A DNA stretch of 64,000 bases, from positions 1,751 through 65,750 of IMG/VR virus record IMGVR_UViG_3300010348_001013, one strand, 5' to 3'. Numbering within the stretch: position 1 is the first letter of the stretch; each line of letters starts with the position of its first letter. Position numbers and translations under genes: made by a program. The DNA comes from a virus. The notes under the pieces were generated by a model. That model was not told the DNA's origin. It searched no databases and was given only the letters and a program-made list of their open reading frames with translations. Positions 25,784-61,635 of this stretch are shown here, one piece after another.

Positions 25784-25944
25784 ATGTCCTCATTTTTTTG
25801 ACCCCCGCACAGCCAAAAAGTCATCTATTGGGGAAATCTCTTTTTTTATTAAAGGTAACAAATTGTGATCATTAAAAGATAACAAGAGGAGATCATTTTA
25901 ACATCCCCAATAGATGTCCGTTGTCTATACTTCCTGTATCTGTG

Positions 25945-28900
25945 TTATGTATTAAATATAGATGCGGGGGCCTGTTTATTTAATTTATTTCCGTAATATT
26001 TTGTTTGGTTACCAATAAAAGCCAGATCTGCTTGATCTGAATATTCTTTATGTTTTGCTAATTTAAAAGTATTCTCTGGTTTTACTAATTGTATTCTAGT
26101 TTTGTATTTATGTAAAGAATTCTTTTCTTGATGTAATCCATAATCAAAATAATCCAGATTTGATGTGTTATCAATGGATTTGATTGGAGATATAGAACCA
26201 CCATTAATTAAAGATAGAACAGAAGATGCTAAAAATGCACCAGTTAATATTGCGGGGGCACCAGATGCAACTGGTAATACTTTTTTCATATTTATCATTT
26301 CTGATTTTTCTTTATTAAACAATGACATTAAATCTACAACCCCACCTTTTCTTGCATTGTTTATGAAATTTAATGCACTGTTTATCCAGGGAACTGTTAG
26401 ATCTGGATTTAATATTTTTGGATCTTTAATTCTATCTATTTCATTAGATAGATAATTTAAATATTCTTCCGGATAAACTGCTCTAATTCCTTGTTCTGCC
26501 CTTGATACGGTTTTTATCCTTTCGTCGTTAGATAATTGCCTTTCAATTAGCATTAATGATGATAAAAATTTATCAGAACCACTATCTAATGATTCTAATA
26601 ATACATTAGCATTTTCTATGTTCTGAAATGGTTGACCTATTTTAGTTTTAATATGTTCCAACCCTGCTTGTATTCTTATTGCATCTTTTAATGCTATAGA
26701 TATACCACCAATATCAATATTTATATTTCCACTTTCACCATTTTTTAATCTCGTGGTTCCTTCTTGTATTATTGCTTTGTAAAAATCATTAAAATCTCGT
26801 AGTGTTAATTCTTCACGTTCTCCTATTCTATAACGTGGCTTGCCATAACCAGTTGGTCTAGAAGATGCTTGTTTTGAATTAATATAAGATATTACTTTAC
26901 TTTGAAAATCAGTTGTCATATTATATCTTGAATCCATTAGTGTTATTTTATAATCGCCGTCTTTTATTTGTTTTAATATTTTTGCTACTTGATCAACTTT
27001 TTCTCTATTAATAGAATTTAAAACAGAACCCAATTCATTTAATTTTCCCATTATACCATCTGCAAAATTCAAAAATCCATGTTTTGAATCTATTGCTGTG
27101 TTATTTATAACATCGTAAAATGCATCTATTGATTCAATTGTAAATTTATCAGATATTAAATTTTGTGCTGTGACTAATCTATTAAATAGTTTAAGAGTTA
27201 CCTTCGGTGGAATAACTTTAGTATTTGTGTATGCCTGGAATGCTTCTTCTGATAACGTACCATTGATTACATTATTTACGTTTTTTAATATTTGGTCGTA
27301 ATTTACAGTTTCTGGGGTAACACCCATCTGTAATAAAATATCATTAGATATTTTTGTACGTAGATTTTCTACCTCCTCAGATGTTTTGCCTAAATTAATT
27401 ATTCCAATTGCTATTCTCATCTCATTAACATGTGATGACATGATATTGGTTTCAGCTCCTAGTTTCATTAGCGTTGAGTTTAATATTTCTGTTGTTTTTT
27501 TATCTAGAGTTTGATCAGAAGGATCATAGCCTGCATGTGTTATTAGTAAATCTCTTATGTAATCTTTTACACTAACAGATCTTATTTCTTGATCTCTATT
27601 TTTTGTAGTTAATATATATTTATCTAGAATTGGTGCATATATTGCTTTTGTATTGTTTTGTTTTGATTCTGGAATGAAAGCAAAATTCTTTATGTTATTG
27701 TATATAACATCTTCTAGGTTGCCTTTTACAACTGTATCTTTTTGCCCTGCTGACAATATTATTTTTTCAAATTCATTATAATCTAATTTGGAAATATCAA
27801 TTTTCTTTTCAGCGCTTGCTTCAAGTAATGTTTTTAATACTTCAGTTTCAGAAAGAAATACCTTCATAACATCAGAATCAAAGTCCTGGTGCATCATTTT
27901 TCCTATTGCATTAGAAGGTTGAATGTTTTCTATTTGCATATTTTTAGTGGCTCCTATTGTCAATACAGTTGCCAATTGTGATTTTGTTGTATGTTCTGGT
28001 TCTCTTGATACTACTCCTAGTGCTCCTCTTTGTTTAACATATTCTACATATAAGTCAACTAATTTTTTTAATGCGGGGGTATTTTGTTCAATATCCAATC
28101 CTAATGCTTTTGTATAAGATTCAAGTGCTGTTGATGTTATTCCTCTTACTGCTCCTTCAGAAATAAAAACTTTATTTAATGGATTATAAAGCATTTCTCG
28201 CATTAATTGTTGTTCAACTAAACTATTGACTGAAATCCCATTAATATTATAAGGATGTGTAATTCTATCAAGTACATCTAATAAATATGAAGCAGTTCTA
28301 TGATTTATACCATTAGAAAATATTTCATTCTTTTTAAAGTAATTTGTTCTATCAGACAAATAGTTAAATGCATGAACTAATTTAGTGGTTTCTAGTGATG
28401 ATTCTTTGTCATTCTTAATGATTTTAAAAGCGTTATATAAATATTGATTTAAACTAGTTTTTGCACTATCTTCTAAGTCATCGGCAAATCCTGCTGGATC
28501 TATAAATTGATATGCTGGAATTATTGATGAAGTTGATGTAACTTTCATTGCCATTGCTGGGGCACCTTCTTTCCCGCTTAACCCATTCACATATTCTAAT
28601 GTAAGATCACGCATGGATTGTTGTAATGATTTATCTATTTGTCCTACCATTATATTATATGTATTTAAATTGTTAATTTCATCGATATTAACTGGTTCTC
28701 CTTTTGAAACTTTATGATTGATTTCGTTAATTCTGTTAGTTAATTCAGACCTAGCAGATTTCAATAATAATATACGAGTTTGAACTTGATATAGTGAATT
28801 TAATCTTGGATGTGTATCATATCCGCTACTTACTGTAGTTAATACTTTGTCAGCATATGCTGGTATTAATGGCATATACCCGCTGAATTTTTTATCTCCA

Positions 28901-31900
28901 GCACTTAATGTAATACGAGTTTTTGGAGATTGAATGGCATTTAAATCCAACATTGTAAATTTGTTTGCAATATTTTCTGATCCATATACCTGTTCAATTG
29001 CTTCAAAAAAGGCTGTTGCAGTTCGTTGTTGTTCATTAATGGCTTCGTCTGCTAATCTTAATATATTTCCTTCACTAATCTGTTGGCGATTTAATTCGTT
29101 TGTTTGAATACTGGATCTAATACGCTCTATGAATGCATTTGTAAATTCTGTAGCTTCACGCATTACTTTAGCATTGGCAGCATTCTCAGAAGCAGATTCA
29201 ACATTAGGATATTTGATAGCTGTGTCTGTTTGTGAAGATACTGCAATTCTGTTATGTATCTCGGCAGTTTTGTCAAAAATATTCTGAATTATTTTGGTTG
29301 CATCTACTATTTCAACCGGTAATCCTTTTATAACTTTTAACTTAGAAATCTTATTACCTAATCCTTCATCAAACAAAGTTGCATAGTTATATTGTAGTCT
29401 ATCTGCAAAAACAAAATTGTCTTCCATGTGTGAAATAGAATATTTAAAGAAATTAGGCATATTGAAAGAAGATAAGAATAAATTATATTGATTTAATTTA
29501 GCACCTTTAGTTCGATTTGATTTTACGGTTGACCAATTTTTGGCTACTTGATTTGAATATATCGCATATTTTTCTTCTGTTGTAATTATTGGTGCTAAAT
29601 CTGCAACAAATGCCATTTGGCCATTTGGAAAAGCATATGCCATTGCTAATGGATAATTACTCATTATAATTGGTTGATTAACATTATTATCAGGAACACT
29701 AGATAAATCTCTTATGATATCGCTTTTTGTTATTTCAATTCTATTTTTATACATTGGATAATTTGTCTCTATTATTTTATTTGATGAACTTATTATTTTA
29801 TCAATCAGTGGTGTTGGTTGATTTTTACTATTTGCTTCTCTATATAGTTCTAAGAGAAAATTATTAAATTTGTCACCAAGATGATATTTTTGCTCTAAAA
29901 TAATTGGGTCCGATGTTCTTAATGCAATTTGAAAATATTCCTTACCATTATTACTAACAAAATTGATATCACTTATTAAATCACTATAATCTTTTTTATT
30001 AATGCCAAATATATCTCTAAATAGTAATTTGTATGTTTCTTTAAGCATTCTATTAAAATCACCAACAGCTATTTTTTTAGAACTTGAATTAACAGAATTT
30101 AATTTATCTTTTATTATTTCCATTAAAGTATTAAATAATCCAGTTGCTAGTTGCATAGGTTGTCTTATAGAATCTTGAATTATTGATACATATGGAACTG
30201 CTGTCTTAGCAATTGGTAAAGAAAATTCAGTAGGAGCTAATATTGAAAGATTATTGAAAGCTAAAAGATATCCTTCTTTGAATTGACCATTAGCAATTGA
30301 TGCTTGAGTTTTTAATGCTGGATCGGCTTTCTCAAATATTTTAGTTGTTTGTTCATTATATGCTGGATTGTAGTAATATTTTGAAATTCTAATTGATTTA
30401 TCTAAGTTCTTTTTACCTTCAACAGTCAAAATCATCCTTTTTCCTTCAATATCATTGATTTCATTTATTGAAGTTATTGTATCAAATGTATTACCATTAG
30501 AATCATTCATTTCTTTGTTAATAAATTTTAGTAATTTCTCATTATATTCGCTTTCGCCAATATTTTTATTACCTATTGCAAATTGTCTATAGAAATTTGC
30601 ATATTGTTCATATGTCAATTCTATAGATTTAGTGATTGTGTGAAATGGTTTTTCTGTTTTAAGTGCTCTTTTTCCATAAGCAGTTAAAAATATGGATCCT
30701 TCTGATATTCCATACGCTTGTGTTGACAGCGTGCTTGAATCACTTGATGATATTTTAGGAAAAAATAATGAAAAGCCTCTTAACATTGCTGGTGATCTAT
30801 GTCCTAATTCTGCTGGTGTTATAAATAATGATCTTGATTTTGTTCTAAAATTAGATTCAGAATATGCTGCTGTTTTTATTCCTGGGGGCTTTGATCCTGG
30901 TGTTGCACCAACAAAATATTCAGGTGATCCTTTATATATTGTAAAACTTGTTATTGATCTATTTCCTGCCTGAAGAGCAACATTTCCAATTGATAAGAAT
31001 TTCTGAAACGAATCATATAGAGATTCTATGTTTGTTAATTGTTTGGTATTTCGTAAATGTTGAAGATTTAATAATGCCGTCTCCATACTTGTAAGCATAT
31101 TATAATAGTCATTTCCTATTAATACATTCTGCCCGGAATATTGTTTTATCTTATTTATTATACTTTGAACTAATATTAATTGATTTTCCAGCGATTTATT
31201 AAATCTTGAGCTTGTTTTAATTTGTTCAGATGTTTTAAATATCTGGACTGGACTATTAATATTTGTAATAAGATTTTCAACCATAACACCATAAGATTCT
31301 AGGAGACGATTATATGTATCTTCATATAATTTATTTATCTGTTTAGCATCATATTGACCTGTTTTGTTTGCAATATTCAAAAGATTTGCTAGTAATTTAT
31401 TTATTTTTTCATTCAATAGAGAACCAAATGATGTTATTTGTGTTTCAGATGGATATCTAAAATGAGTATCTTCTATACCAGCTTGAACCGCATTAAATTG
31501 AAATGCTCCTTTATTACCTGCGAGTTTATTACTAACTTTTGCCTTTCCTGCTCCTCTAAATGTGTATCTTCCCTGCCTATTGGCTAAAATGTCTCCTGGT
31601 GACGTCATCATTAATGGAATATTTAAATCGTTTTTAGCATTAAGATATTTAAATTCAAATGTTTGGGTTCTGAAAAAATCAATTGCAGACGCAATATATT
31701 GGTTTATTTCGTCTTCTGTTACCTGTAATGCTGCATTACCATTCTGTGATCGCATTAATTTTATTTGTTGCAATGCTAGATCTTGTGCTTTTTTAGTTAT
31801 TCTTATATTTCCATTATCATCTACAGATTCAGATGCAATTTTGAATAATGTATTACTATAAAATGTTTTAAATTTATTTATAAGCGAATTTACGAATGTT

Positions 31901-33396
31901 TCCTGGTTAGTCCTTGTGGTTTTAACATTTCCATTAAAATAGTCATCCAAATCCATATAAAACAATGGAAATTGACTATTAGGAGTATGTACAACTATGC
32001 GTTTCTGTTTTCCAGCTTCTGTTAAAACATTATCATAATCAATAACAGTAGAAACAAATTGACCAATTGAAAGTAAATCATTATCGTTTAATTTATTCCA
32101 TACGTTTGTTCTTAATGGAGAAACTTCGCCAACCAAATGTGTAACAACTGGATCAAATAATTTTCTTCTTAATGCAATATAATTATCATTAAGTTTAACA
32201 GATCTATCACTAATTCTAAAAGTATCGTATAAGCGTTTTGTTTCTCTTAACACACTGTTAAGATACGGTTTTTTTATTGATCTAATAGTCGAGTTAATAT
32301 ATTCATCTGTAATAGCAGTTAAGTTATCTTTTTCTTCCTTTGTGCCAGCAAGTAAAGTAGCTATTATATATTGTGTATTATGATCAACGATAGTATTTAT
32401 AGAACGAACCATTTTTCTATCAGTATAAGATACATTGTGAAAAAACTTAGTTATTTCTTTTCTTATTGCTCTTCTTGCCATTTGTTGACTATAATGGTGG
32501 GTTTTAAGATATTCGCCTATCTTATCAACGATCAAATCAAAAGATTTAATGTTTGCCTGTTGTTCTACATTTCTTAGTTCTTTTACAACTCGTGTTAGAT
32601 TGTTTACGGTTTCAGCCGAATTGACGTTTAAATTATTCAAATTTTCTGGCGGGGTTGCCCCGGCATTTTTAAACGATGTATTTAATTGTGAAATAAATGA
32701 TCCTCTAGATTGTGATAGAAATTGTAGATCAATCGGAGATTCACTATGAATTTTTTCAACATATTGATATGCATTGTTTGTGGCTTTTAAATCTTCTGTT
32801 GAAAATTCTAATGCAAACTTAAGATATTCTTGTGGAATATCTTTCAAAAACTCCATATTTTTAGCTCTAGCCTCTTGTTTTATAACATTAATATAAGGCA
32901 CCGACAATCGTAGTAAAAGTGATGGATCAGCATAATATTTTTTTATTGCATCCTTAGATGAGAATACTTGAACATCTGATGTTTCCCTTAATTTATTTTT
33001 TATTAATTTCATTTCTTTATATACATAACTATTCTCAACTTTGTGCAAATTATTAACATAGTCAGACGTAAAATGTAATGAGCCTTCTGGTCTTGGTTTT
33101 AAAGTAATTGATGTTCTTAGTGCTTCTGATGCCGTTTGACTGTGCAAATTAGTAGCATTTTTACGTAAATCATATTCAAACTGATTATTACGGGACATTG
33201 TAAAGCGATATAGATTTTTTGTTCCATAATCAAGAACTTTTCTTACTGGACTAAGTAAAATTAATGAAGCAGCACCAATACGACCAATAGTCTGAATTGT
33301 AAATTTCTGTTTTCTTTCGTTTTCGTATTTGGAATATTCTTGATTTCTATTGATCAACGTATCTCTGTACAAATTGTAACTATCCAAATAGCTCAT
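25945..33396 (-). CDS. Giant single-chain two-barrel (beta'-like) RNA polymerase, probably virion-packaged, 2483 aa
   Basis: LSGKEG (aa ~1606-1611), VVSREPEH (R ~1798) and MHQDFDSDVMKVF (D 1838-1842) match beta' GKQG, NRAP and NADFDGDQMAVH in order. Confidence 0.75.
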   Translation of the reverse strand: MSYLDSYNLYRDTLINRNQEYSKYENERKQKFTIQTIGRIGAASLILLSPVRKVLDYGTKNLYRFTMSRNNQFEYDLRKNATNLHSQTASEALRTSITLKPRPEGSLHFTSDYVNNLHKVENSYVYKEMKLIKNKLRETSDVQVFSSKDAIKKYYADPSLLLRLSVPYINVIKQEARAKNMEFLKDIPQEYLKFALEFSTEDLKATNNAYQYVEKIHSESPIDLQFLSQSRGSFISQLNTSFKNAGATPPENLNNLNVNSAETVNNLTRVVKELRNVEQQANIKSFDLIVDKIGEYLKTHHYSQQMARRAIRKEITKFFHNVSYTDRKMVRSINTIVDHNTQYIIATLLAGTKEEKDNLTAITDEYINSTIRSIKKPYLNSVLRETKRLYDTFRISDRSVKLNDNYIALRRKLFDPVVTHLVGEVSPLRTNVWNKLNDNDLLSIGQFVSTVIDYDNVLTEAGKQKRIVVHTPNSQFPLFYMDLDDYFNGNVKTTRTNQETFVNSLINKFKTFYSNTLFKIASESVDDNGNIRITKKAQDLALQQIKLMRSQNGNAALQVTEDEINQYIASAIDFFRTQTFEFKYLNAKNDLNIPLMMTSPGDILANRQGRYTFRGAGKAKVSNKLAGNKGAFQFNAVQAGIEDTHFRYPSETQITSFGSLLNEKINKLLANLLNIANKTGQYDAKQINKLYEDTYNRLLESYGVMVENLITNINSPVQIFKTSEQIKTSSRFNKSLENQLILVQSIINKIKQYSGQNVLIGNDYYNMLTSMETALLNLQHLRNTKQLTNIESLYDSFQKFLSIGNVALQAGNRSITSFTIYKGSPEYFVGATPGSKPPGIKTAAYSESNFRTKSRSLFITPAELGHRSPAMLRGFSLFFPKISSSDSSTLSTQAYGISEGSIFLTAYGKRALKTEKPFHTITKSIELTYEQYANFYRQFAIGNKNIGESEYNEKLLKFINKEMNDSNGNTFDTITSINEINDIEGKRMILTVEGKKNLDKSIRISKYYYNPAYNEQTTKIFEKADPALKTQASIANGQFKEGYLLAFNNLSILAPTEFSLPIAKTAVPYVSIIQDSIRQPMQLATGLFNTLMEIIKDKLNSVNSSSKKIAVGDFNRMLKETYKLLFRDIFGINKKDYSDLISDINFVSNNGKEYFQIALRTSDPIILEQKYHLGDKFNNFLLELYREANSKNQPTPLIDKIISSSNKIIETNYPMYKNRIEITKSDIIRDLSSVPDNNVNQPIIMSNYPLAMAYAFPNGQMAFVADLAPIITTEEKYAIYSNQVAKNWSTVKSNRTKGAKLNQYNLFLSSFNMPNFFKYSISHMEDNFVFADRLQYNYATLFDEGLGNKISKLKVIKGLPVEIVDATKIIQNIFDKTAEIHNRIAVSSQTDTAIKYPNVESASENAANAKVMREATEFTNAFIERIRSSIQTNELNRQQISEGNILRLADEAINEQQRTATAFFEAIEQVYGSENIANKFTMLDLNAIQSPKTRITLSAGDKKFSGYMPLIPAYADKVLTTVSSGYDTHPRLNSLYQVQTRILLLKSARSELTNRINEINHKVSKGEPVNIDEINNLNTYNIMVGQIDKSLQQSMRDLTLEYVNGLSGKEGAPAMAMKVTSTSSIIPAYQFIDPAGFADDLEDSAKTSLNQYLYNAFKIIKNDKESSLETTKLVHAFNYLSDRTNYFKKNEIFSNGINHRTASYLLDVLDRITHPYNINGISVNSLVEQQLMREMLYNPLNKVFISEGAVRGITSTALESYTKALGLDIEQNTPALKKLVDLYVEYVKQRGALGVVSREPEHTTKSQLATVLTIGATKNMQIENIQPSNAIGKMMHQDFDSDVMKVFLSETEVLKTLLEASAEKKIDISKLDYNEFEKIILSAGQKDTVVKGNLEDVIYNNIKNFAFIPESKQNNTKAIYAPILDKYILTTKNRDQEIRSVSVKDYIRDLLITHAGYDPSDQTLDKKTTEILNSTLMKLGAETNIMSSHVNEMRIAIGIINLGKTSEEVENLRTKISNDILLQMGVTPETVNYDQILKNVNNVINGTLSEEAFQAYTNTKVIPPKVTLKLFNRLVTAQNLISDKFTIESIDAFYDVINNTAIDSKHGFLNFADGIMGKLNELGSVLNSINREKVDQVAKILKQIKDGDYKITLMDSRYNMTTDFQSKVISYINSKQASSRPTGYGKPRYRIGEREELTLRDFNDFYKAIIQEGTTRLKNGESGNINIDIGGISIALKDAIRIQAGLEHIKTKIGQPFQNIENANVLLESLDSGSDKFLSSLMLIERQLSNDERIKTVSRAEQGIRAVYPEEYLNYLSNEIDRIKDPKILNPDLTVPWINSALNFINNARKGGVVDLMSLFNKEKSEMINMKKVLPVASGAPAILTGAFLASSVLSLINGGSISPIKSIDNTSNLDYFDYGLHQEKNSLHKYKTRIQLVKPENTFKLAKHKEYSDQADLAFIGNQTKYYGNKLNKQAPASIFNT

Positions 33397-33535: not shown

Positions 33536-35047
33536 ATGAAAAACAAATATGTTAAAAAGAATTATTTAACATCGTCTTATTATGATTATAGAAACTATTT
33601 TAATAACGAATTGGATCCGATGCTTTCTGAAAATAATGTCATTGATTACATGAATACAATAGTTAATGGTGTGATCACTAAGAATGCTTTTGTAAAATTT
33701 CCTACAATGGCTTATATGATTCCAAGATTCTATCAAATTATGGATGTTACAAGACGAACAGGATTTGCTCCATCGGAAATAAGCGGTAATAAATTAGTAA
33801 ATTCCTATGGTAGAAATGTTGCAGCTAGAAATCGTGATTATGTTAATGATAGATTTGGCGGGGGGACATCGTCTGGACCTCGTATTAAATATCTAAATAA
33901 AATGGCAGCAATGGCAGTTGGTGCTAGAGCTATGAACAATATGATTGAATCGGATGCTTTTAGAGATCTATTATATAGAGATAAGAGTAATACCGAAATA
34001 ATTGCTGACAGTCTTAAACTTGCCGGGGGATTAACGGCGACAACATTAGCAGTAAGAGCTATTAATAATATTGAACCTATTTTGGGTGGATTATATAGTG
34101 GATTTTTACAAACTGTAAGTGAAACACCAATAGAAAATAGTTTTGAAGGTGCTATTGAAAGTGGATTGAAAGGTATAAGATCGATTCCTAATAAAGTAAC
34201 AAATGCTATGAATACTATAGCAAAGAAAAACTTGACAATAGATAATGAAATTGTTAAAGGATATCGTAGTGCTGTTTTAAGGCAAGAAATTCCAGAAACT
34301 GCTGAAATTCTTAGAAGAAATCAATATGAACTGAGAACTTTAGCAGATAAAACTATCGAAACAAGATATGGTGCCAATCCATTTAAGAAAGGAAAATATA
34401 ATAGAAATCTATTAAATGAAATGACAGATGATATATTTGAGAGAATACAAAAAGCCTCTGTTGGAAATACAGCAGAAGCAGCTTCTGAGAAAGTTGTGAC
34501 TAAATTATGGACAAGAATAAAAAACACAATATCTGATATTGCGGGGTTTAATATAGAAAAAACACCACTTGAAAGTGGAAATATTGCAAGAAAAAGTGAT
34601 GTAAAGAAAATAGTAAAAAGTGTTTTGGAATCAAGTAATGAGAAAGCTGTATCGGAATATGCAGAACCATTGAGAAAGAATATTGCCGGGAATTTTGAAG
34701 TCATAATGGATTATGAAAGATCTATTCTTACCAAACAAAGAAACGCTAAATTGTTAACATATGGAAAGAATTTATATTTGGGTGGTGTAGTTGCAAGTTC
34801 ATTTAGTAATTATATTTCTGATACAAGAAAAGCAAATAATTTTGTTAATGGAATACTTTCTGAAATGACAATGGGTTTTAGAAACGGTAATACTTTTGGA
34901 TCGAATAATCCATCTTTTTCGATGTCTTCAGAAGCTGCAATGTCAGAACGACAAAGAGCCATTACGGCAATACAAAATTCACATTTAAATGCCAGAGTTT
35001 ATATAGGACAAGAAGCAAAATTAAGATTTCAATCAGAAGGATTTTAA
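33536..35047 (+). CDS. Hypothetical basic helical protein, candidate internal virion protein, about 503 aa
   Basis: ATG 33536 with SD AGGAG is preferred over 33473. Ala/Gly-rich hydrophobic helices; C-terminal RQRAITAIQNSHLNAR..IGQEA segment. Confidence 0.6.
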   Translation: MKNKYVKKNYLTSSYYDYRNYFNNELDPMLSENNVIDYMNTIVNGVITKNAFVKFPTMAYMIPRFYQIMDVTRRTGFAPSEISGNKLVNSYGRNVAARNRDYVNDRFGGGTSSGPRIKYLNKMAAMAVGARAMNNMIESDAFRDLLYRDKSNTEIIADSLKLAGGLTATTLAVRAINNIEPILGGLYSGFLQTVSETPIENSFEGAIESGLKGIRSIPNKVTNAMNTIAKKNLTIDNEIVKGYRSAVLRQEIPETAEILRRNQYELRTLADKTIETRYGANPFKKGKYNRNLLNEMTDDIFERIQKASVGNTAEAASEKVVTKLWTRIKNTISDIAGFNIEKTPLESGNIARKSDVKKIVKSVLESSNEKAVSEYAEPLRKNIAGNFEVIMDYERSILTKQRNAKLLTYGKNLYLGGVVASSFSNYISDTRKANNFVNGILSEMTMGFRNGNTFGSNNPSFSMSSEAAMSERQRAITAIQNSHLNARVYIGQEAKLRFQSEGF

Positions 35048-38000
35048 AAACGAATCCAATTTAAGTTTGGTTGATATCTAAATTGTTGTTTACCAGCATA
35101 ATTGCTAAGTTCAAATATTGGAATATTTGGAACAGATGGATATTGAAAATATGAAGGAACATATTCATCAGAATATGCATATTGAATTGCATTGTTTTTA
35201 GTATTATACTCAAGTGCATTTCTATCAATATATCTATTAGTATTTGAATTAGTCGGTGTTAGATTTAAAACACTATCTCTAACTGCATTATATGTTAAGT
35301 AATTTCGTTCATTTTCATGTGATGTATAACGAGGAAGATTGAGATATACATCTGGTGCACTATTATATACCATGTCAGATTTAATTAAACTAAATGATCT
35401 AGGAAATGCATTTTTTGCATAACTTTTATTTGGATAATTTATATAATGTTCTTGCATAGCATTACTATTTATTGCGTCGGTCAATGTTGATAAAATAACT
35501 GGTGATTTATCAACTTTATTTATATGAATTGGCATTTGTTTATTAATATGGGCAGCTCTGTTTATATCTTTTTGTTCTACTTCTGTGATATTTTTTGAAA
35601 TAATTCCAGGTTCTTGTGATGCAACAATATCTATTAATTCGTATGGCGGATATCCTTTATCAGAAATTGCTTGTGACACTTCATGTGCGGCAACTAACAT
35701 ATTATCTGTTCTTATTTGTGAAGCATTAAAACTTGGAGTTGCTTCTCCTGGTTTTACTGATGCTACTTCTTGAACATTAACTGGTTCCATTGCCGATCCA
35801 TATCCAGTATAAAATTTTCTATTAATGACAGTATATATATTATCATGTCTCATTGTTTCTAAGTAATTATTATTTCTAGGATTGGCTGATACTTTCTTTA
35901 TATTTCTTCTTTTTCTTGGATGGTTTACCGCCAATTTTGCAATAAACCCAGTTGTAATTATTGCACCTGCGCCAACTCCAAAAAGAATAGCATTAGTAGG
36001 ATTATTGACAATATTATCCATAAACAATTTAGATAATTTTGTAATACCAGCAACTGTTTTGTTAACTAACTTCCTGGTTGCATACTGACCAAGAATCGCC
36101 TGTGATGCACCAACATTGCGTTTTAAACGAGCATTAGCACCAGAACCAAAATCACTAAAAAACATTCTATTAGCAATTGTCCATGTTGAAACATTGTGTG
36201 ATATGGCTTCAGGAACATATGTTCTTTCACGTTCCTGTTTTTTATAAGTATATGCTGCTTCTTTTTCAATGTCTTTTTGTTTTTGTTTATTGAACCATGA
36301 TTCACCTATTTTCATGGCACCTAAAAACAAGATACTCGGAACAGTACTAGCATATGTAGGCGATGCACTACGAATAATATCATTTATACTTGTATCTGCC
36401 ATTTGTTGTCGATATCCGCTTATAAAATGAGATGCCTTTAGTTCGTTATTGATGTTTTTAACTAATTTAATTCTCTCAGATTCAGATATATCGCCCTCGT
36501 CAGCAAGATCGTTCAATAATACGTTTGTTAGAATAGAAACATATGTGTCAAATGTCATATTTTTTGTTGGTGATTGTTTATCAATAATTCTGCTATCAAA
36601 AATACGTATAGATGTTTTTTGATTTAGTATTTTTTTATCTTTTTGAATCTTATCAAACTCAATTTGAAACCATTTTGAAGGTTTATATCGACTTTTGGAT
36701 GTTTTGTTAACTATACTAAATTGATATTTTTCTAGAATTTCGTCAATGACATTTTGTTCTAAATTAAACGATCCTAACACAGTTTGCCCAAATTTTCTCA
36801 TATATTCCAATTCTTGTTCCTGTGTTTTATATTTTTCATGTGTTTGATAAACTTCATTTAATGCACTTGCAATTATCGGAAATGCGGTACCTTTAGTTGT
36901 CTTGTTAAATTCAATAAATGCTGTATTTCTATTAAATTGTCCTGGTTTTTTTAATATATCGTGTCTAGTTTTTTGAACAGTTAAATATAGGTCTGTAATA
37001 TTACGATGTAAATCAAAATTACTGATTTCATCAATATGTTCACCAAATGAATTAGCAGCTGCCCTAATTAACTCTTCGTCTATTGTATCCCTGACATCAA
37101 AATGTGTTTCTCTATTGCTATTTTTAATTCCAAATGCATCGAGAAGAGAATAAAGATTTTGAACACTATATCCAGTGGAATATTTACTACCAACACTTAA
37201 ATTAAGTTGAGCTTCTTTAATTTTTGTATTAGATATGCCGACTTTTTTCATATAAGGCAAAAGATAATATGATGCCACTTTCATATTAGATGCTGAGCCA
37301 AATAATGCAGATGAAGTATTTAGTAAACTTGACATAATCTCAGATCTAATATCCCTTGATGGAATATTATAAGTTTTATCGAAACCTGCCAGGTTTGTTA
37401 ATGCTTTTTCGATGATATCGTTATCAAATCGACCAAATGATGATAGAATTAGTTTAGGTGCCCGGCCTATTTTTTGTTTTTCGCCATTAACAACATCTGT
37501 AAAAAAGATACTATTTAAAATATTGTTTATATTTTCTCTATGTAATTCTACATTTTTATATGCATTTTTATATTCATCGCTTTCGACATTTTGAATTTTA
37601 TTCAAGGCTGCCAATGCTTTATCAAGTTCTGCTTTTTCAGAATAAAACGATTTAATTGTTGCTACGGTTTCTCTTTGTAAAATATCAGCGAATTTATCTT
37701 TACTGCTATCTGTTTCTGGAATTGTCTTTGGATTTGATAAACTTTTTAAACTTGTCAATACTAAAAATTCCATTGATTTGTCGCCGGCTTTATTTAAAAT
37801 AATAGTACTTTTACTAATTGGATATGCTTTTGGAACAATATTCTGATCTAATGGATTTATTCCACTTTGTAAATCAGTCATTTTTTTAAGTGCATCTATT
37901 TCTGCCGGGGCTAATTTTCCTTGATTGCGTATTGCCTTTTCAACTAAATATTCTATTGCTTTTGAAAAATTATATGGTAATTCAATACTTGAATATCCTG

Positions 38001-41000
38001 TTTTGGAAACATATGATGTATTATAAGTAAAATTTGTTTTTTGATTAAATGCATCAAGTATATTTTCTCGACATACGTTATCTAACTCATTTAATTTAAA
38101 TAATGGATTTTTATCAGGAGGAGAATGTGCAGCAGCATATATTTGTTTAAAAGCAAACGCCGCAGATGTTTTATCTGTATGTTTGTTTTTCATTGTTGGG
38201 TTAATTAACATATTACTAGGTAAAATATACTTGTTAGCTACGTCTATACGATCGTTTTTATTTGGTGATACTAAAGTTTTAAAAAGGTTTTGGAAAAGAG
38301 ATTTTTGTTTATAAGTTACAGGAATACTAAATGATTGCTTTTGTTTTCCATTTAGAATTGAAACACCAAAATAAGCATTAGCAACATTACCTGTAATATT
38401 ATTAACATAACCAGTATCTTTTGTTGAAGACAACATTCCTTTTATTATTCTAGTATATTGTTCATATTCTGACTTATTTCTAGATAACTTAATTAAAGTA
38501 TTTTGAATAATATTAGAAGTATTATTAATAGCTTCAAACATTTCATGTAAATAAGGTTCACTAAATAATGTTGCTTCTGATAAACTAACCACTGAATATG
38601 GAATCTTTTTTGATGGATCGCCTGCAAATTTGGCATTATAATTGCGTCTTGTACTAGCGTTTCTATTAAGCATAAATCTTTCATATTTTTTATAATTTAA
38701 TGTGCGATCTTTATAATATCTTCTGTTAACATTTTCTATTGCTTTTGTATTGAGAATTGTAATTGTTTTGTTTCTATATTTATTAACGGTATAATTTTTT
38801 CTAGCAACATATTGTGGAACCGAATTCATCAATACTGGAGTGAATGTCATTGATATTACTTTATTAATGTTGGTATCACTCATATACAAATCTTCAGTCA
38901 ATGTTTCACTATCAACAATAACCTCTCTTCCATACATTATGTTATTTATTGATCTGAATCCACTTCCAACAGAAACAATTCCAATTTTAGATAAATCATT
39001 TGGACCAACATTAGAAGCACTAATATTGAAATTATCTTTATTATATGTTTGAAGAAATCTATTCAAATCACTGTAATCCATTCCGTCTTGCGAACCATGA
39101 TAGGTATCATAAACTATATAACTATTAGCTGTTTTCTTTATTATAAAATCAAATGAATTATTTGCATCATTTGAATCTTTAACAGTAATTCTTAAAAATG
39201 GTCTATTTTTACTCAATCCAATCTTTTGTATCTTATCTAATGTTAATTGAATTCTCTCATTATGCAGGGGCTTAATATTGTTTGGATCAAAAATTGCTCC
39301 ACCGCCCTTGTTATCTTGAGACGTCTTCTGAACATCGTTAATTTTCTTTAATGTAATAATTTCTTGAGGAATTGGTTGTGGTCGATTATTCGTAGAATAG
39401 ACACTTTGTCTGGCTATATTATATGCATCAACTGAAGGGATATAACCACCCTTTAAATTAGTTTGAAATCTTGATTGTTCAAATAATTTTAAAAGGGCAC
39501 TATTATTGTTTGCATTTTTTGCTTGTATTTTATTTTCTAAAGGTTTAATATATAATGAATTGAAATATTTATTTACATATCTTGTTAAATGTCTTGCTGC
39601 ACTATTACTTGAAATCCTTTTTTCAACTTCACTTGATTGTGATTGAATAATACTATCTACTATAATTTTAGCAATATTTTCAGGCGCAACCCCAACTTTA
39701 GCAAAGTTTTTCAACACAATTTTATTAGTTTTTAATTGATGTGTTAATTCTATTAGGTTTTCATTTGCAATTCTACTTGCTTTACCAATAACTCTTGATG
39801 TTACTTGATTTTCTATTGCTGTTATTATTTTCTCGTATTCTTCGGCAGTTAATTCAATTTTCTTGCCTTTATTAGTTCTTAGTAGGTTCTCATATAATGC
39901 ATCTAGAAATTCCGTTGTCGTCATTTTGTTTATATTCATTATAGACGACATTTTATTAATCAAAACATCTCTAGCACTATTATTTTTAATATCTTTTATC
40001 ATTGCTGCTGGGTCGTTATAAATGTTTTGAATAGCAGGTTTTTCGGTTTTCTTAAAATAACCTTGTGCTAGTTTGTTTTGAAGATCCTTGGCGACATTTA
40101 AATATTCCTCATTATATTTGTCAATGAATATATTTTTAACATTATCAACCACTTCAGAAATACGTGCAGTTAATGTATTATTGGCAACATTTAAACTATA
40201 TGTATTAGAATATACTCTATTATCTAAAAGATTATCAAGATCACGGATTGCCTTAGCAAATTCGTTTTTAATATTAATATCAAGACCATTATTTGATGTT
40301 AAAATCTTTGGAATATTTATAATTTCTTCTGTTGCTAAAATATTGTTATTAACTATTTTCATTCCAACAATATCATTAGCAATTTGGGATTTAATATTCT
40401 GAATAGATCTAGTTATATTGTCCAGATCTTTCTCTGACAATTTATTACCTTTTGCAATTATAAAATTATCATAAACTTTATTAATATTTTGTTGAATTTT
40501 AGCAATGGTATTTTTATAGACGGCATCAACATTATTATCTTGTTCTGTCAATAGAGACACAATATTATCTACGATTTCAATAACATCAGAATCCTTATAC
40601 CAATGATTTGAATTGTATTCTTTTGAAGTTTTTAAATTATTTATAGCATATTGAATATTATATAAGTGGTGATTTATATTATAAATAGTTCCGGCAAACG
40701 TGACATCTTTAACAACTCGTTTGTTATTCTGACCTATTGTAAATATAGATGAATCATTAAAAAACTTTGAAAGTGCATCTTCTAGAAGATAATAATATGT
40801 TAATATACTTCCATTATTGAATTTTGGATCAACAAATTTTGCTTTAACGGTTGTTTTATCAATATAAGTTAAACTTTCTTTAAATTCTTCTGTTGCTAAT
40901 TCAATATTATTATCAATTTTTGTTTTAATATTATCATATATTATATAAAGTTTATCAGTTAGGTTACGAAATTTAATAATTTTATAAGATTTACTTATTT

Positions 41001-41070
41001 GATCTTCAAGATCAATTAATGAATTGTTAAATATTGCAATTAAAGGATTCGAACTTGGCTTAAATGGCAT
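35044..41070 (-). CDS. Giant putative internal virion protein with split DEDDh (DnaQ-like) exonuclease, 2008 aa
   Basis: VIVDSETL (ExoI), SFGRFDNDII (ExoII), YSVQNL...IKNSNRETHFDVRD (ExoIII); C-terminal hydrophobic helices and a duplicated motif. Confidence 0.55.
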   Translation of the reverse strand: MPFKPSSNPLIAIFNNSLIDLEDQISKSYKIIKFRNLTDKLYIIYDNIKTKIDNNIELATEEFKESLTYIDKTTVKAKFVDPKFNNGSILTYYYLLEDALSKFFNDSSIFTIGQNNKRVVKDVTFAGTIYNINHHLYNIQYAINNLKTSKEYNSNHWYKDSDVIEIVDNIVSLLTEQDNNVDAVYKNTIAKIQQNINKVYDNFIIAKGNKLSEKDLDNITRSIQNIKSQIANDIVGMKIVNNNILATEEIINIPKILTSNNGLDINIKNEFAKAIRDLDNLLDNRVYSNTYSLNVANNTLTARISEVVDNVKNIFIDKYNEEYLNVAKDLQNKLAQGYFKKTEKPAIQNIYNDPAAMIKDIKNNSARDVLINKMSSIMNINKMTTTEFLDALYENLLRTNKGKKIELTAEEYEKIITAIENQVTSRVIGKASRIANENLIELTHQLKTNKIVLKNFAKVGVAPENIAKIIVDSIIQSQSSEVEKRISSNSAARHLTRYVNKYFNSLYIKPLENKIQAKNANNNSALLKLFEQSRFQTNLKGGYIPSVDAYNIARQSVYSTNNRPQPIPQEIITLKKINDVQKTSQDNKGGGAIFDPNNIKPLHNERIQLTLDKIQKIGLSKNRPFLRITVKDSNDANNSFDFIIKKTANSYIVYDTYHGSQDGMDYSDLNRFLQTYNKDNFNISASNVGPNDLSKIGIVSVGSGFRSINNIMYGREVIVDSETLTEDLYMSDTNINKVISMTFTPVLMNSVPQYVARKNYTVNKYRNKTITILNTKAIENVNRRYYKDRTLNYKKYERFMLNRNASTRRNYNAKFAGDPSKKIPYSVVSLSEATLFSEPYLHEMFEAINNTSNIIQNTLIKLSRNKSEYEQYTRIIKGMLSSTKDTGYVNNITGNVANAYFGVSILNGKQKQSFSIPVTYKQKSLFQNLFKTLVSPNKNDRIDVANKYILPSNMLINPTMKNKHTDKTSAAFAFKQIYAAAHSPPDKNPLFKLNELDNVCRENILDAFNQKTNFTYNTSYVSKTGYSSIELPYNFSKAIEYLVEKAIRNQGKLAPAEIDALKKMTDLQSGINPLDQNIVPKAYPISKSTIILNKAGDKSMEFLVLTSLKSLSNPKTIPETDSSKDKFADILQRETVATIKSFYSEKAELDKALAALNKIQNVESDEYKNAYKNVELHRENINNILNSIFFTDVVNGEKQKIGRAPKLILSSFGRFDNDIIEKALTNLAGFDKTYNIPSRDIRSEIMSSLLNTSSALFGSASNMKVASYYLLPYMKKVGISNTKIKEAQLNLSVGSKYSTGYSVQNLYSLLDAFGIKNSNRETHFDVRDTIDEELIRAAANSFGEHIDEISNFDLHRNITDLYLTVQKTRHDILKKPGQFNRNTAFIEFNKTTKGTAFPIIASALNEVYQTHEKYKTQEQELEYMRKFGQTVLGSFNLEQNVIDEILEKYQFSIVNKTSKSRYKPSKWFQIEFDKIQKDKKILNQKTSIRIFDSRIIDKQSPTKNMTFDTYVSILTNVLLNDLADEGDISESERIKLVKNINNELKASHFISGYRQQMADTSINDIIRSASPTYASTVPSILFLGAMKIGESWFNKQKQKDIEKEAAYTYKKQERERTYVPEAISHNVSTWTIANRMFFSDFGSGANARLKRNVGASQAILGQYATRKLVNKTVAGITKLSKLFMDNIVNNPTNAILFGVGAGAIITTGFIAKLAVNHPRKRRNIKKVSANPRNNNYLETMRHDNIYTVINRKFYTGYGSAMEPVNVQEVASVKPGEATPSFNASQIRTDNMLVAAHEVSQAISDKGYPPYELIDIVASQEPGIISKNITEVEQKDINRAAHINKQMPIHINKVDKSPVILSTLTDAINSNAMQEHYINYPNKSYAKNAFPRSFSLIKSDMVYNSAPDVYLNLPRYTSHENERNYLTYNAVRDSVLNLTPTNSNTNRYIDRNALEYNTKNNAIQYAYSDEYVPSYFQYPSVPNIPIFELSNYAGKQQFRYQPNLNWIRF

Positions 41071-44332: not shown

Positions 44333-44380
44333 TTTACATGTATATACAGTCATCTATTGGGGAATGATGCGGGGGTTATT

Positions 44381-47245: not shown

Positions 47246-48856
47246 ATGCTTTTGCAAAGAAAGAAAAAACCAAATATTTATGAACTTGACAGTATGCTAC
47301 AAGAAATTAAAACATCATTAAATAAAGTTCACGATGATATTAATTCAAAATCATCAGTTGAAAGATACGATGCAATGGCACAATTTACAAGTAGTAAATT
47401 TGAAAACAAACAGTTTATTGATAGACTAAGAGCTGTAACTGGCTTATCAGAAGAAACATTAATTAAATATAAAAATTTTAATACCTTTTTTGAAAACAGC
47501 CAGGATAAAGATGATTATAAGCTCCCAATAGTTGATTTGTGTCGTGTTGAACGAGCGTATTATTTTGGAGACACATTATTACACAGACGAAAAAGAATAT
47601 TTCTAGAAAAAGCATTTAATGAAGGATATTATCTGGAAAGTCAAAATCAATCAACCAAAGCATATATTGAAAAACGACTGGCATACAATGAATTAATAAC
47701 AGAAAAAAAATGCTGGGATTTATATAATGAAATAATGTCTGATATTATAATGTATGATTATGCTTTGTTGGGATTAAAAAGAAATGATGACTATTCCCCT
47801 GGCTATTCTTATACGATTGGAAGCAAATCATATGAACCAATTTATGCTTTTGATAGATTAGACGTTCCTGTTACATTGTTTTCATGTAAAGATGGAAAGT
47901 ATTTAAGTGCAAAAATGTTCCCAGCACTAAGAAATAAATATATCCCCAATAGAAAAAACTCCCTGCCATTCTTTTATAATTATTTATCAAAATTTTCATC
48001 TGCAACTTATAAACTACAAAATGATCCAATAGAATCCGATTCAGTTCCAATATCAATGGAAAATATTATAATGGCAAGTGATGTAAAACCAGCAGGTCAT
48101 ATTTATCCAATACCAAGTGCTGCAATGTTTATAGAAGATCTACAATTATTGAGAGATGCCGAGGAAGCATTGAGAGAAGTAATATTTCAGGCAGGATTTC
48201 CATTATTACATTTTAAAATAGGATCTGATATGGTTCCAATGAGACCAAATGAAGATCGTTCATTATCATCAAAAATCAAAGCAATGGATAAGAATGCTGT
48301 TTTAATTACAGATCATAGAACTCAAGGTCAACAATTATTAACTGAAGTATATAACCTATCCAAGGATTTGTCATATCTCTGGCAACGTGTTATTGTTGGT
48401 TTGGATTTATCCGACGTTGCATTGGGAATTGGTTCATCAACAAATAAAGGGACTGCTGATATAACAGATAAAATAACTCTTGATGTTACAAAACGCTATC
48501 AAAACATATTTTCAAATTTAATGGAAAAACTATTTGATCAGATGTTACTTGAAGGTGGTCTTAAATTATATAATTTGACTTCTGAAAACAAAGTTTATTT
48601 CAGATTCTCAGAAATAGATATTAATAAAGCAATTTTAAAAGAAAATCACATTTCACAATTATTTATGCAAAACATGATAGATCATAACGAAGCAAGAGCA
48701 AAAATTGGATTATTCAATAAACCAGACGAATCCCAGATGTATGCTAACAAGTACGCTGGAACCAAGTCATCTATTGGGGATCTTGTTAATAATGAAGTTC
48801 AGCCTGAAAATCAGTATGGTAAAAAACAGTCAGCTGCTGAACCTACAAAGAATTGA
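47246..48856 (+). CDS. Portal protein
   Basis: 536 aa, downstream of terL; portal-like segments GFPLLHFKIG, IVGLDLSDVALG.G...NKGTA, FRFSEID and IDHNEARAKIG. Confidence 0.8.
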   Translation: MLLQRKKKPNIYELDSMLQEIKTSLNKVHDDINSKSSVERYDAMAQFTSSKFENKQFIDRLRAVTGLSEETLIKYKNFNTFFENSQDKDDYKLPIVDLCRVERAYYFGDTLLHRRKRIFLEKAFNEGYYLESQNQSTKAYIEKRLAYNELITEKKCWDLYNEIMSDIIMYDYALLGLKRNDDYSPGYSYTIGSKSYEPIYAFDRLDVPVTLFSCKDGKYLSAKMFPALRNKYIPNRKNSLPFFYNYLSKFSSATYKLQNDPIESDSVPISMENIIMASDVKPAGHIYPIPSAAMFIEDLQLLRDAEEALREVIFQAGFPLLHFKIGSDMVPMRPNEDRSLSSKIKAMDKNAVLITDHRTQGQQLLTEVYNLSKDLSYLWQRVIVGLDLSDVALGIGSSTNKGTADITDKITLDVTKRYQNIFSNLMEKLFDQMLLEGGLKLYNLTSENKVYFRFSEIDINKAILKENHISQLFMQNMIDHNEARAKIGLFNKPDESQMYANKYAGTKSSIGDLVNNEVQPENQYGKKQSAAEPTKN

Positions 48857-49541
48857 TGATTTTATATGTTTTACATGATTTAAATTTGGAATTAGATTTG
48901 TTTACACAATAACCATTTGAAATACATAATGGCCCTGCTTTATTAAATGATAGCGGGGCTATATTTTTAACAATTTTAAGAATTTCGATAGCCATTTCCC
49001 TTATTTCCCATTGTGCTGTATTACAAGCTCGTTGTTCGAAAAAATTAAACAATGATCTCCCGTTCATTGTCATTATCAGATTGGTACATGTTGCATTTGG
49101 CAATACAAATCTAGCATCTTCACAAGGTATGTTTAAATTGGTTAGTTTATTATAGGTATCAATTATTTGGTTCATTAATACATTATATAATTCTAATGCT
49201 TGAGGGCTATTAGTAATTGATGCGGGGGTCACAAATTTAAATTGGTCAGGTGTTATTCTGACATGACGTTGTGATTGTTGTGAATATGATGCTATTCTAT
49301 GTCTAACTAACTGATGCGATAGGGCCCGGCTAACATTTTCTATTAGAAAAGTAAATGTTATGTGTTCAAAAGGAGAAAGATGTTTATGTTCTAACAAATA
49401 ATTAATTAAACGTTCAACTTCTTTGTTACTATTAGCTAATTCATATACTTCCCCAATAGATTCTTTCATGTAACATAAATGAGCAGCCATTGCTACCTTT
49501 TTATCAGGCGAAATCGTATGATCAATTAGTGTTATTTTCAT
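48843..49541 (-). CDS. thyX: FAD-dependent thymidylate synthase
   Basis: HLSPFEH, ThyX signature RHRIASYSQQSQR, EDARFVLP, AQWEIR. Confidence 0.97.
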   Translation of the reverse strand: MKITLIDHTISPDKKVAMAAHLCYMKESIGEVYELANSNKEVERLINYLLEHKHLSPFEHITFTFLIENVSRALSHQLVRHRIASYSQQSQRHVRITPDQFKFVTPASITNSPQALELYNVLMNQIIDTYNKLTNLNIPCEDARFVLPNATCTNLIMTMNGRSLFNFFEQRACNTAQWEIREMAIEILKIVKNIAPLSFNKAGPLCISNGYCVNKSNSKFKSCKTYKIINSL

Positions 49542-49550
49542 ATCTTTTAT

Positions 49551-60879: not shown

Positions 60880-61635
60880 ATGGCTTCAGCAGGTGCAGCT
60901 TTTACAAAAGCATATTCATCCAATTCAGGATGTGATATGATAATGAGATTTGATAACTGGCAAGTAAATACAGTTGTTGGTTTAACAGTATCAGTAACAA
61001 GAGAAAAGGTTCCGGTTTATACAATGGGAAATAAAAACCCTAGATCTATTTCTAGAGGAAAAAGATCTCTAGCTGGATCAGTTCAAATGCAAGTTTTTGA
61101 TAGGGAACCAATGTATGAATTGATGCAAGATGAAAATCATCAGTTTTATGCTCATGGTGATGATATAAATTGGTTAACCAACCTTAAAAACAATCCGTTT
61201 AAGTCTGCTGTACAAACCAACGAACCAGTTCAGGTAGTTAAAACTCCGGCTAGATATCTTGATGAAATGTTACCGGTTGATATTACAATCGTTATGGCAA
61301 ACGAATATGGAAACCTTGGATGGGGTGCAATTGTTGGTGTTGAATTTATCAACGAAGCAACTTCATATTCTATGGATGATGCTTCTACACAAACAGCAAC
61401 AACTTATTTAGCATTACACAAGGAACATTTTAGACCAATAGATGTAACATCACCAGCTACCGGATTTACTACAGCTAGTATTTATACTTTGGGTCAAATT
61501 ATAGAAAACTATGCGGAAAATGGTGCTGCTGGATTTGGAATAACAGAATCTAACGTTGTAATTGGTCAAGAAGGAACAACGGCTGACACAGAATACGGCG
61601 TACCAGAATGGATGAGAGAGGAATCAACTCCTTAA
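60880..61635 (+). CDS. Tail tube protein, 251 aa
   Basis: YSSNSGCD, SVTREKVPVYTMG...PRSISRGKRSLAGS, DEMLPVDITI..ANEYG, GVEFINE; directly after the sheath; SD AGGAGG. Confidence 0.75.
   Translation: MASAGAAFTKAYSSNSGCDMIMRFDNWQVNTVVGLTVSVTREKVPVYTMGNKNPRSISRGKRSLAGSVQMQVFDREPMYELMQDENHQFYAHGDDINWLTNLKNNPFKSAVQTNEPVQVVKTPARYLDEMLPVDITIVMANEYGNLGWGAIVGVEFINEATSYSMDDASTQTATTYLALHKEHFRPIDVTSPATGFTTASIYTLGQIIENYAENGAAGFGITESNVVIGQEGTTADTEYGVPEWMREESTP

Follow-up and report, generated by a model that had tools for sequence, protein, structure and literature searches.

A beta-prime-type RNA polymerase barrel proposed in a giant tail/baseplate-block protein of a phage related to Bacillus jumbo myoviruses

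RESULTS

A giant open reading frame and its conserved motifs

The DNA analyzed here (the window) is a 64,000-base stretch of a linear virus record (IMG/VR record IMGVR_UViG_3300010348_001013) that has 65,750 bases and is estimated to be 56% complete. The G+C content of the window is about 27%. On the minus strand, at 25945..33396, an open reading frame (ORF) with an ATG start encodes a protein of 2,483 amino acids (aa), P0001, the candidate virion RNA polymerase that is the subject of this study. An earlier reading made from the sequence alone (the sequence-only reading) had described it as a single-chain two-barrel RNA polymerase with a variant catalytic loop, encoded within the virion gene block of a contractile-tailed phage. 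To our knowledge, virion-carried RNA polymerases of the cellular type have been proven in few phage groups, i.e., the phiKZ/AR9 phages with their multisubunit enzymes, the crAss-like phages with gp66, and the Thermus phage P23-45 with gp96.

P0001 has two full-length homologues. An exhaustive phmmer search with aa 880-2079 against 1.84 billion cluster representatives identified P0003 (2,480 aa, 48-54% identity to P0001) and P0004 (2,253 aa, 28% identity). A word-indexed search with P0001 returned two proteins, one of which was the query's own cluster, and the same search with P0004 returned P0004 itself only. Scans of viral contigs and genome contigs for related loci found none. Since these homologue scans added nothing beyond P0003 and P0004, a deeper alignment could not be built. 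The sole find in metagenome contigs was a separate 3,882-base contig (L002) encoding residues 1175-2373 of P0001 with 100% identity, indicating that the phage has been sampled at least twice.

The ORF and the four motifs singled out in the sequence-only reading were all located as described, the motifs being YGISEGSIFLT (aa 895-905, nucleotides [nt] 30682-30714), LSGKEG (aa 1606-1611, nt 28564-28581), SREP (aa 1797-1800, nt 27997-28008), and DFDSD (aa 1838-1842, nt 27871-27885), each on the minus strand. In SREP, R1798 and P1800 would correspond to the Arg and the Pro that are universally invariant in the catalytic barrel, and DFDSD, the sole D-x-D-x-D sequence in P0001, could be the Mg-binding Asp triad, here with a Ser in the fourth position. 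S-R-E-P-x-H, D1838, D1840, S1841, and D1842 are invariant in P0001, P0003, and P0004, the last of which reads DKDSD; the three Asp and the variant Ser proposed for the loop are thus kept in all three members. The distance from the Arg to the first Asp is 40 residues in P0001 (1798 to 1838) and 35 in Escherichia coli beta-prime, as had been counted before, and it is 39 in a jumbo-phage beta-prime and in phi14:2 gp66. Ruprich-Robert and Thuriaux list eight residues as invariant across all two-barrel polymerases (PMC2919709), and by that list the P0001 family keeps five of the eight, i.e., the Arg and Pro of R-x-P and the three Asp. Invariant residues are also found in YGISEGSIFLT (E899, G900, I902, L904, and T905 in the three-way alignment) and in the conserved block LSGKEG...KVTSTSSIIPAYQFIDPAG (aa 1606-1636, 28489..28581, minus strand), where they comprise K1609 and G1611 of LSGKEG as well as K1618, V1619, S1621, S1624, P1627, Q1630, F1631, P1634, and G1636.

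The hydrophobic helices that had been proposed at both termini correspond to real segments conserved in the family. In all three members, the two most hydrophobic 15-residue windows lie at the N terminus and about 100 aa before the C terminus (aa 2383-2397 in P0001). The N-terminal segment, IGRIGAASLILLSPV (aa 37-51, 33244..33288, minus strand), is the second most hydrophobic 15-residue window of P0001, and it has counterparts in P0003 and P0004 with G41, A43, L47, L48, and P50 invariant. The C-terminal segment is Gly/Ala rich and spans aa 2376-2397 (26206..26271, minus strand).

Profile comparisons point to a beta-prime-type catalytic barrel

A profile of the beta-prime barrel was built from 7 bacterial and 11 jumbo-phage sequences and compared by hhalign with the core of the three-sequence P0001 family, 550 columns around the motif. 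The two aligned with a Prob of 51.8, a P value of 1.5e-4, and a score of 38.9, with SREP on NRxP and DFDSD on DFDGD. Adding three rows from the gp034 family of Bacillus phages, described below, to the profile raised the values to a Prob of 82.5 and a P value of 9.8e-6. The full-length P0001-family alignment (2,466 columns) had its best match at the same place in the barrel (P = 0.0021), and a narrow proteobacterial beta-prime profile also aligned with the motif in register (P = 0.0044). As a positive control, a 10-sequence crAss-type family, whose founder has been crystallized, was compared with the same profile and gave a P value of 0.002 and a score of 32.0.

None of 90 column shuffles of the P0001 core reached 38.9 (maximum, 21.3), and the reversed alignment scored 17.0. 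Shuffles in which DFDSD was kept scored at most 24.6 (n = 45), and those in which DFDSDVMKVF was kept scored at most 29.6 (n = 45). As these motif-keeping shuffles remain below 38.9, the flanks add signal beyond the motif, amounting to about a third of the score. When the 45 stop-to-stop frames of at least 100 aa in the window were searched with HMMER and a diverse barrel model, P0001 ranked first through aa 1765-1852, with a nonsignificant E value of 0.077. In a language-model search for look-alikes of aa 1590-1900, clusters of PF00623 (RNA_pol_Rpb1_2) ranked second and third (0.89 and 0.88), and the ten best named matches all belonged to the PF00623 family or clan; these neighbors are a lead and are not independent of the motif.

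The region of about aa 1674-1852 is best read, from these alignments, as a beta-prime-type catalytic barrel, specifically the half that would bear R-x-P and the Asp triad. The hhalign comparison places this second half of the double-psi barrel at aa 1791-1852 (27841..28026, minus strand). Of the single-chain two-barrel polymerase originally proposed, the beta-prime-type barrel is therefore the part with support (P values of 1.5e-4 and 9.8e-6 and no shuffle among 90 reaching the score), and a second barrel was not found, as detailed below.

Counterparts of P0001 in Bacillus jumbo myoviruses

Judged by its proteins, the phage is a contractile-tailed relative of the Bacillus jumbo myoviruses 0305phi8-36, KLEB27-3, and WH1 and is not crAss-like. 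Its nearest terminases are those of Moorella phage MTATph1, Bacillus phages WH1, KLEB27-3, Edson, and 0305phi8-36, and Acinetobacter phage ME3. In a BLASTP comparison with KLEB27-3, restricted to the first 50 kb of that genome, matches were found for the terminase, portal, prohead protease, and major capsid protein as well as for two tube paralogues. The tail tube protein (60880..61635, plus strand) displays 37% identity in tblastn to tail tube or virion structural proteins of Bacillus myoviruses (E values of 1e-28 to 1e-29) and matches the tube protein of KLEB27-3 in BLASTP with an E value of 4.4e-36. On the strength of the homology of the terminase, portal, protease, capsid, and tube proteins to those of Bacillus jumbo phages, the placement of the P0001 gene inside the virion block of a contractile-tailed phage stands. 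The same BLASTP comparison matched a 3,033-aa giant encoded downstream of P0001 (12517..21618, minus strand) with KLEB27-3 gp035, a "putative baseplate protein," in two segments (E values of 4.7e-12 and 1.2e-4).

In KLEB27-3, gp035 is directly preceded by gp034 (vB_BauM_KLEB27-3; L119:35003-42307), a 2,434-aa protein annotated as "structural protein," in which NRYPT is followed by ADYDGD with the same Arg-to-Asp spacing of 40 as in P0001. Homologues of gp034 are present in vB_BceM_WH1 (gp095, "virion structural protein"; L120:358-7905) and in Bacillus phage Edson (0920; L121:463-8010), and both keep the pattern NRYPT...AD[YH]DGD. A tblastn search of phage records with gp034 found three Bacillus phages, in a collection that may not include the window's own genome. 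In the protein collection there are 30 gp034-family clusters of 1,809-2,546 aa, with 29 of the 30 at 2,400-2,546 aa, and those with a name are all "hypothetical" save one, "DNA polymerase III epsilon subunit-like." R-x-P...D-x-D-G-D occurs in 30 of 31 gp034-family proteins. PF00623 is precomputed on two of the 30 clusters and scores below threshold in all three phage records (E values of 7e-5 to 9.4e-4 per genome; hmmscan E values of 0.015 and 0.09). Against the barrel profile, the gp034 family gave hhalign P values of 4.4e-7 with 3 sequences and 6.1e-8 with 31 sequences.

When the P0001 family and the 31-sequence gp034 family were compared over their full lengths, the best match joined aa 1674-1849 of P0001 (27850..28377, minus strand) with aa 1763-1944 of the gp034 family, i.e., its barrel region, over 175 columns (Prob of 53.7, P = 1.3e-4, score of 56.3). 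None of 22 shuffles reached this score (maximum, 25.6). For three other giants of the window, the P values were 0.29-0.73. BLASTP of P0001 against gp034 in a 4-sequence set gave E values of 0.028-0.09.

P0001 further resembles the gp034 family in length (2,483 aa versus 2,400-2,550 aa), in lying upstream of a homologous baseplate giant within a tail/baseplate block, in the position of the barrel at about three quarters of the chain, in the Arg-to-Asp spacing, and in a hydrophobic stretch rich in Gly and Ala that precedes the C terminus by about 100-120 aa (found in all three gp034-family proteins checked). Moreover, the phages concerned have terminase, portal, protease, capsid, and tube proteins in common. 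The two differ in the loop (DFDSD in P0001, D-x-D-G-D in the gp034 family), in the two extra genes (encoding 682 and 709 aa) that lie between P0001 and the 3,033-aa baseplate giant, in the N-terminal hydrophobic segment, which is not among the top windows of the gp034 family, and in that gp034 is seen, below threshold, by Pfam PF00623. We read P0001 as a very diverged positional counterpart of gp034. In a limited literature search, which included PMC4870245, we came across no account of the giant structural proteins in KLEB27-3/WH1-type phages that mentions a beta-prime-type barrel. gp034, gp095, and the Edson giant belong to cultured phages, which provide cultivable systems in which the polymerase idea can be tested.

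Results that weigh against a polymerase

A considerable number of results weigh against a polymerase barrel in P0001. PHROGs gave no match for P0001, and hmmscan against Pfam gave nothing relevant, either for P0001 at E ≤ 1 or for all three members at E ≤ 10. Searches of the contig with PF00623, PF00562, and PF05183 yielded no candidate at E ≤ 10 or E ≤ 1, the threshold for PF00623 being E ≤ 10. Neither phmmer of all PDB chains nor two PDB profile searches found a polymerase catalytic subunit; the 77-column core profile retrieved catharanthine synthase alone (E = 1). No match was obtained in tblastn with the whole of P0001 against 50,697 phage records, and the 91-aa core at E ≤ 10 gave two non-polymerase matches with E values of 3-5. 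HMMER with the narrow proteobacterial beta-prime model did not score above 300 shuffled decoys made for each protein. The two AlphaFold2 models, obtained with a family of only three sequences, were unusable: the mean pLDDT was 39.6 over aa 1480-2130 and 37.4 over aa 1590-1875, and the barrel region was predicted to be mostly helical. The likeness between P0001 and the gp034 family is confined to the barrel region, the next match having a P value of 0.22. The hhalign probabilities themselves are moderate (52-83%) and come from profiles that we built around the motif. In addition, two comparisons point to different stretches for the first half of the catalytic barrel, and neither is significant. 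LSGKEG had been equated with the GKQG of bacterial beta-prime, and hhalign does align the two in register, but the score of 13.0 does not exceed the maximum of 60 shuffles, 13.8. The block at aa 1606-1636 is consequently only a possible first half, and the gp034 comparison places that half instead, with low confidence, at about aa 1700-1725.

As a side observation, the full-length profile retrieved from the PDB only the N-terminal domain of the RNA polymerase alpha subunit (E = 1.2, 9 bits), at profile positions 1326-1437 (about aa 1340-1450; about 29050-29380 of the window, minus strand), outside the barrel. This match is not significant and is probably due to chance.

The negative results from HMMER, BLAST, Pfam, and the PDB, together with the unusable AlphaFold2 models, are what would be seen if P0001 were a large, fast-evolving orphan protein without polymerase ancestry in which the motifs had arisen by chance, and in a family of three members about 450 columns are invariant anyway. 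We regard this explanation as very improbable, since the profile-profile score lies about 10 standard deviations above the column shuffles and well above the motif-keeping shuffles, the best match falls on the barrel of the gp034 family, which was identified independently and is syntenic and of the same size, and the language-model neighbors carry PF00623.

A polymerase of this superfamily would have a second, beta-type barrel, in which two Lys and one Asp are described as invariant (PMC2919709). Profiles of this barrel, whole or as N-terminal and C-terminal halves, were built from E. coli beta and 11 phage beta subunits. They did not match P0001 (P = 0.15-0.47), nor did they recognize the second barrel of the crystallized crAss enzyme used as a control (P = 0.069-0.5), and the profiles must for this reason be considered blind. 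The gp034 family likewise gave no match with these profiles that miss the control. YGISEGSIFLT had been tentatively proposed as the beta-type barrel motif, but none of the same control-missing profiles aligned there, and its candidacy is not supported. A HMMER model of the beta barrel found nothing in any of the 45 frames of the window. Three further sequences were considered and set aside: KLAGNKG (aa 624-630), which was placed on GDKMAGRHGNKG in an insignificant alignment and whose Lys are not conserved in P0003 and P0004, and YGVMVENLITN (aa 702-712) and PGSKPPGIKT (aa 833-842), which had been picked by eye as beta-barrel motifs and are supported by no test.

As no second barrel was found in P0001, the enzyme might be split, with P0001 contributing only the Asp-bearing barrel and the Lys-bearing one residing in another giant of the block, such as the 2,008-aa or 3,033-aa protein, or in the 44% of the genome that the contig lacks. 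The polymerases of jumbo phages are indeed divided among several chains (PMC7824862), the barrel of P0001 resembles multisubunit beta-prime more than the crAss single-chain type, and the contig is estimated to be 56% complete. On the other hand, the beta-barrel model was empty in the 45 frames and PF00562 yielded no candidate in the contig; a missing match says little, since the beta profiles fail as well on the second barrel in the single-chain crAss enzyme, and the approximately 1,600 residues upstream of the barrel offer ample room for a second one. We consider a split enzyme unlikely.

Two further points concern function. The presence of P0001 in the virion is deduced from GenBank product names of distant counterparts, and the Ser at position 4 of the loop is, among the enzymes compared, confined to P0001 and its two homologues. 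This position is described as Gly in all previously studied polymerases and as Ile or Val in crAss-like phages, and a non-Gly loop must refold for Mg binding (10.1101/2020.03.07.982082). Among the 10 crAss-type sequences used here, nine read DFD[IV]D and that of Fpv1 reads DYDID. As Ser is without precedent among the enzymes compared, activity cannot be assumed. P0001 might then be a structural giant of the tail or baseplate whose barrel is a relic or serves some other nucleotidyl-transfer or metal-binding role (priming, DNA synthesis, or binding) rather than transcription. Its counterparts are annotated solely as structural proteins, Ser replaces the Gly of all cellular enzymes, the remainder of the 2,483 aa is without recognizable polymerase parts, and phages of the 0305phi8-36 type have a separate YonO-like polymerase (PMC2147016, PMC7824862). 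Nevertheless, the five invariant barrel residues are kept across members that are only 28% identical, a sign of selection on catalysis, crAss gp66 functions with a non-Gly residue at position 4 (10.1101/2020.03.07.982082), and there are precedents for virion proteins that hide active polymerases (10.1101/2020.03.07.982082, PMC10770324). A purely structural or nontranscriptional giant thus seems to us quite improbable.

Neighboring genes and a dispersed repeat

The 682-aa protein encoded next to P0001 (23735-25783, minus strand) has a weak match to PD-(D/E)XK nucleases, with an E value of 0.0022 that is below the cutoff. The 2,008-aa giant on the other side (35044-41070, minus strand) has no Pfam or PHROG match and does not match the gp034 family (P = 0.29); WH1 encodes a 2,025-aa virion protein at the same place, upstream of gp095. 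Pfam detected no exonuclease domain in the 2,008-aa giant, in gp034, or in WH1 gp095. An 820-aa ORF that precedes the tail tube gene gave no match, and its position would suit a sheath protein. A thymidylate synthase gene (48843-49868, minus strand; phrog_85, E = 2e-63) and a gene for a small replication-initiator/DnaD-like protein lie between the portal and capsid genes, on the opposite strand.

The sequence ATCTATTGGGG is dispersed over positions 4436-56830 of the window in 14 exact copies, or 19 copies when up to one mismatch is allowed, versus 0.91 expected, and its consensus extends to about CATCTATTGGGGA(A/T). Copies at 25823 (plus), 25905 (minus), and 33418 (plus) flank the P0001 gene: an inverted pair occupies the 161-nt gap just downstream, and one copy lies in the 76-nt gap upstream. 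The possibility that the motif is a promoter for the P0001 enzyme was considered and rejected, as copies occur in both orientations, 6 of the 14 lie inside ORFs, and there is no fixed distance to gene starts. The motif does not look like a simple promoter. One copy (44352-44362) contains the listed TTG start of a 956-aa ORF (44357-47227, plus strand), suggesting that the true start is probably further downstream.

DISCUSSION

We consider it probable, on the basis of sequence comparison, that P0001 belongs, in very diverged form, to the two-barrel RNA polymerases and is a giant of the tail/baseplate block in a contractile-tailed phage related to the Bacillus jumbo myoviruses. Residues of about 1790-1850 would form half of a beta-prime-type double-psi barrel, in which R1798 and P1800 accompany a Mg-binding triad consisting of D1838, D1840, and D1842, with Ser at position 4 of the loop, where Gly is usual. 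P0001 may be assembled into the particle and expelled through the tail at infection, perhaps aided by the hydrophobic segments at its two ends, and it could then produce the earliest phage transcripts without relying on the host enzyme. Its ejection and activity are proposed here by analogy to phi14:2 gp66 and P23-45 gp96, for which this mode of early transcription has been described.

A broader proposal, which we put forward tentatively, is that P0001 and its relatives represent a deep and rapidly evolving branch within a hitherto undescribed class of polymerases that reside in tail/baseplate proteins of about 2,500 residues, with the branch having a Ser loop and being delivered through a contracting tail via membrane-active segments at both ends. 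If P0001 and the gp034-type giants are active, a contractile-tailed lineage would inject transcription machinery hidden in "structural" proteins of the tail module, which would explain host-independent early transcription in these phages. Injected polymerases of the cellular type would then be general to a lineage of large myoviruses, beyond the crAss-like and Thermus phages. The active site with Ser would differ from those of the cellular (Gly) and crAss (Ile/Val) enzymes and would provide a naturally occurring Gly-to-Ser change in the loop that is the most conserved in transcription, and these very diverged sequences would be of use for tracing the history of the two-barrel fold. Enzymes of this kind would escape Pfam, PHROGs, and BLAST, and AlphaFold2 could not fold P0001 from two relatives; the barrel of P0001 was found through profile-profile comparison, gene order, and signature motifs.

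With respect to polymerases already attributed to these phages, the enzyme described for 0305phi8-36 is orf99, which is YonO-like and encoded outside the structural arm (PMC2147016, PMC7824862). According to the account of Iyer and colleagues, jumbo phages lack polymerases of their own, with the exception of the phiKZ-type phages and two others (PMC7824862). The phiKZ/AR9-type enzymes resemble P0001 in their beta-prime-type barrel, where R-x-P-[ST] is found with a spacing of 39, and in being packaged in contractile-tailed particles (PMC7598289, PMC7824862). They differ in that they consist of 4-5 chains of about 400-1,400 aa and are recognized by Pfam and BLAST.

The sequence-only reading had drawn its comparison with the single-chain enzymes of crAss-like phages, and this part was not borne out: P0001 displays no similarity to the gp66 family in hhalign (P = 0.42 against gp66 alone, P = 0.13-0.44 against the 10-sequence crAss family) or in tblastn against phages, and its nearer relatives are the giants of the Bacillus jumbo myoviruses. 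There are nonetheless resemblances in kind. phi14:2 gp66 is likewise a giant virion protein (2,180 aa) with a non-Gly residue at position 4 (10.1101/2020.03.07.982082), it is encoded beside genes for other giant virion proteins and is described as barely similar to cellular enzymes, and its Arg-to-Asp spacing is also long (39, compared to 40 in P0001). The differences are the Ser of P0001 as opposed to Ile or Val, a phage that is not crAss-like, and a barrel that, by these profiles, is nearer to the beta-prime type than that of gp66. We also noted that a "virion structural protein" of about 4,400 aa in Flavobacterium phage Fpv1 (NC_031914) is a gp66 homologue with FRTPT...DYDID; its record places Fpv1 outside Crassvirales (Fipvunavirus), which indicates that the crAss-type virion polymerase extends beyond that order.

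A cellular protein of comparable character is NCgl1702 from Corynebacterium glutamicum (2,169 aa, beta::beta-prime-like), which is also a giant and mostly orphan, has about 40 residues resembling those of two-barrel enzymes, and has been proposed to originate from a mobile element or phage (PMC2919709). It is set apart by its description, in which both barrels, switch 2, and the funnel are reported (PMC2919709), whereas one half-barrel is recognized in P0001.

gp96 of P23-45, a virion polymerase fused to the tape measure protein of a Thermus phage (10.1101/2022.12.01.518664, published as PMC10770324), is, like P0001, a giant tail-associated protein. Its polymerase was likewise found via a D-x-D-x-D signature and is reported to be otherwise without detectable polymerase similarity; it has membrane segments and is thought to traverse the tail and transcribe the first genes (PMC10770324). 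In gp96, DFDGD is located in the N-terminal fifth (aa 779-783 of 5,002), a metallopeptidase domain is present, and the protein occupies the tape-measure slot of a long noncontractile tail (PMC10770324). No peptidase or other Pfam domain was found in P0001, and no gp96 entry was matched in the PDB sequence searches. The tape-measure slot of KLEB27-3 is gp031, three genes upstream of gp034, and the corresponding slot lies beyond the end of this contig. The candidate barrel of P0001, in contrast to that of gp96, lies at about aa 1800-1850 of 2,483, and P0001 belongs to a contractile-tailed lineage.

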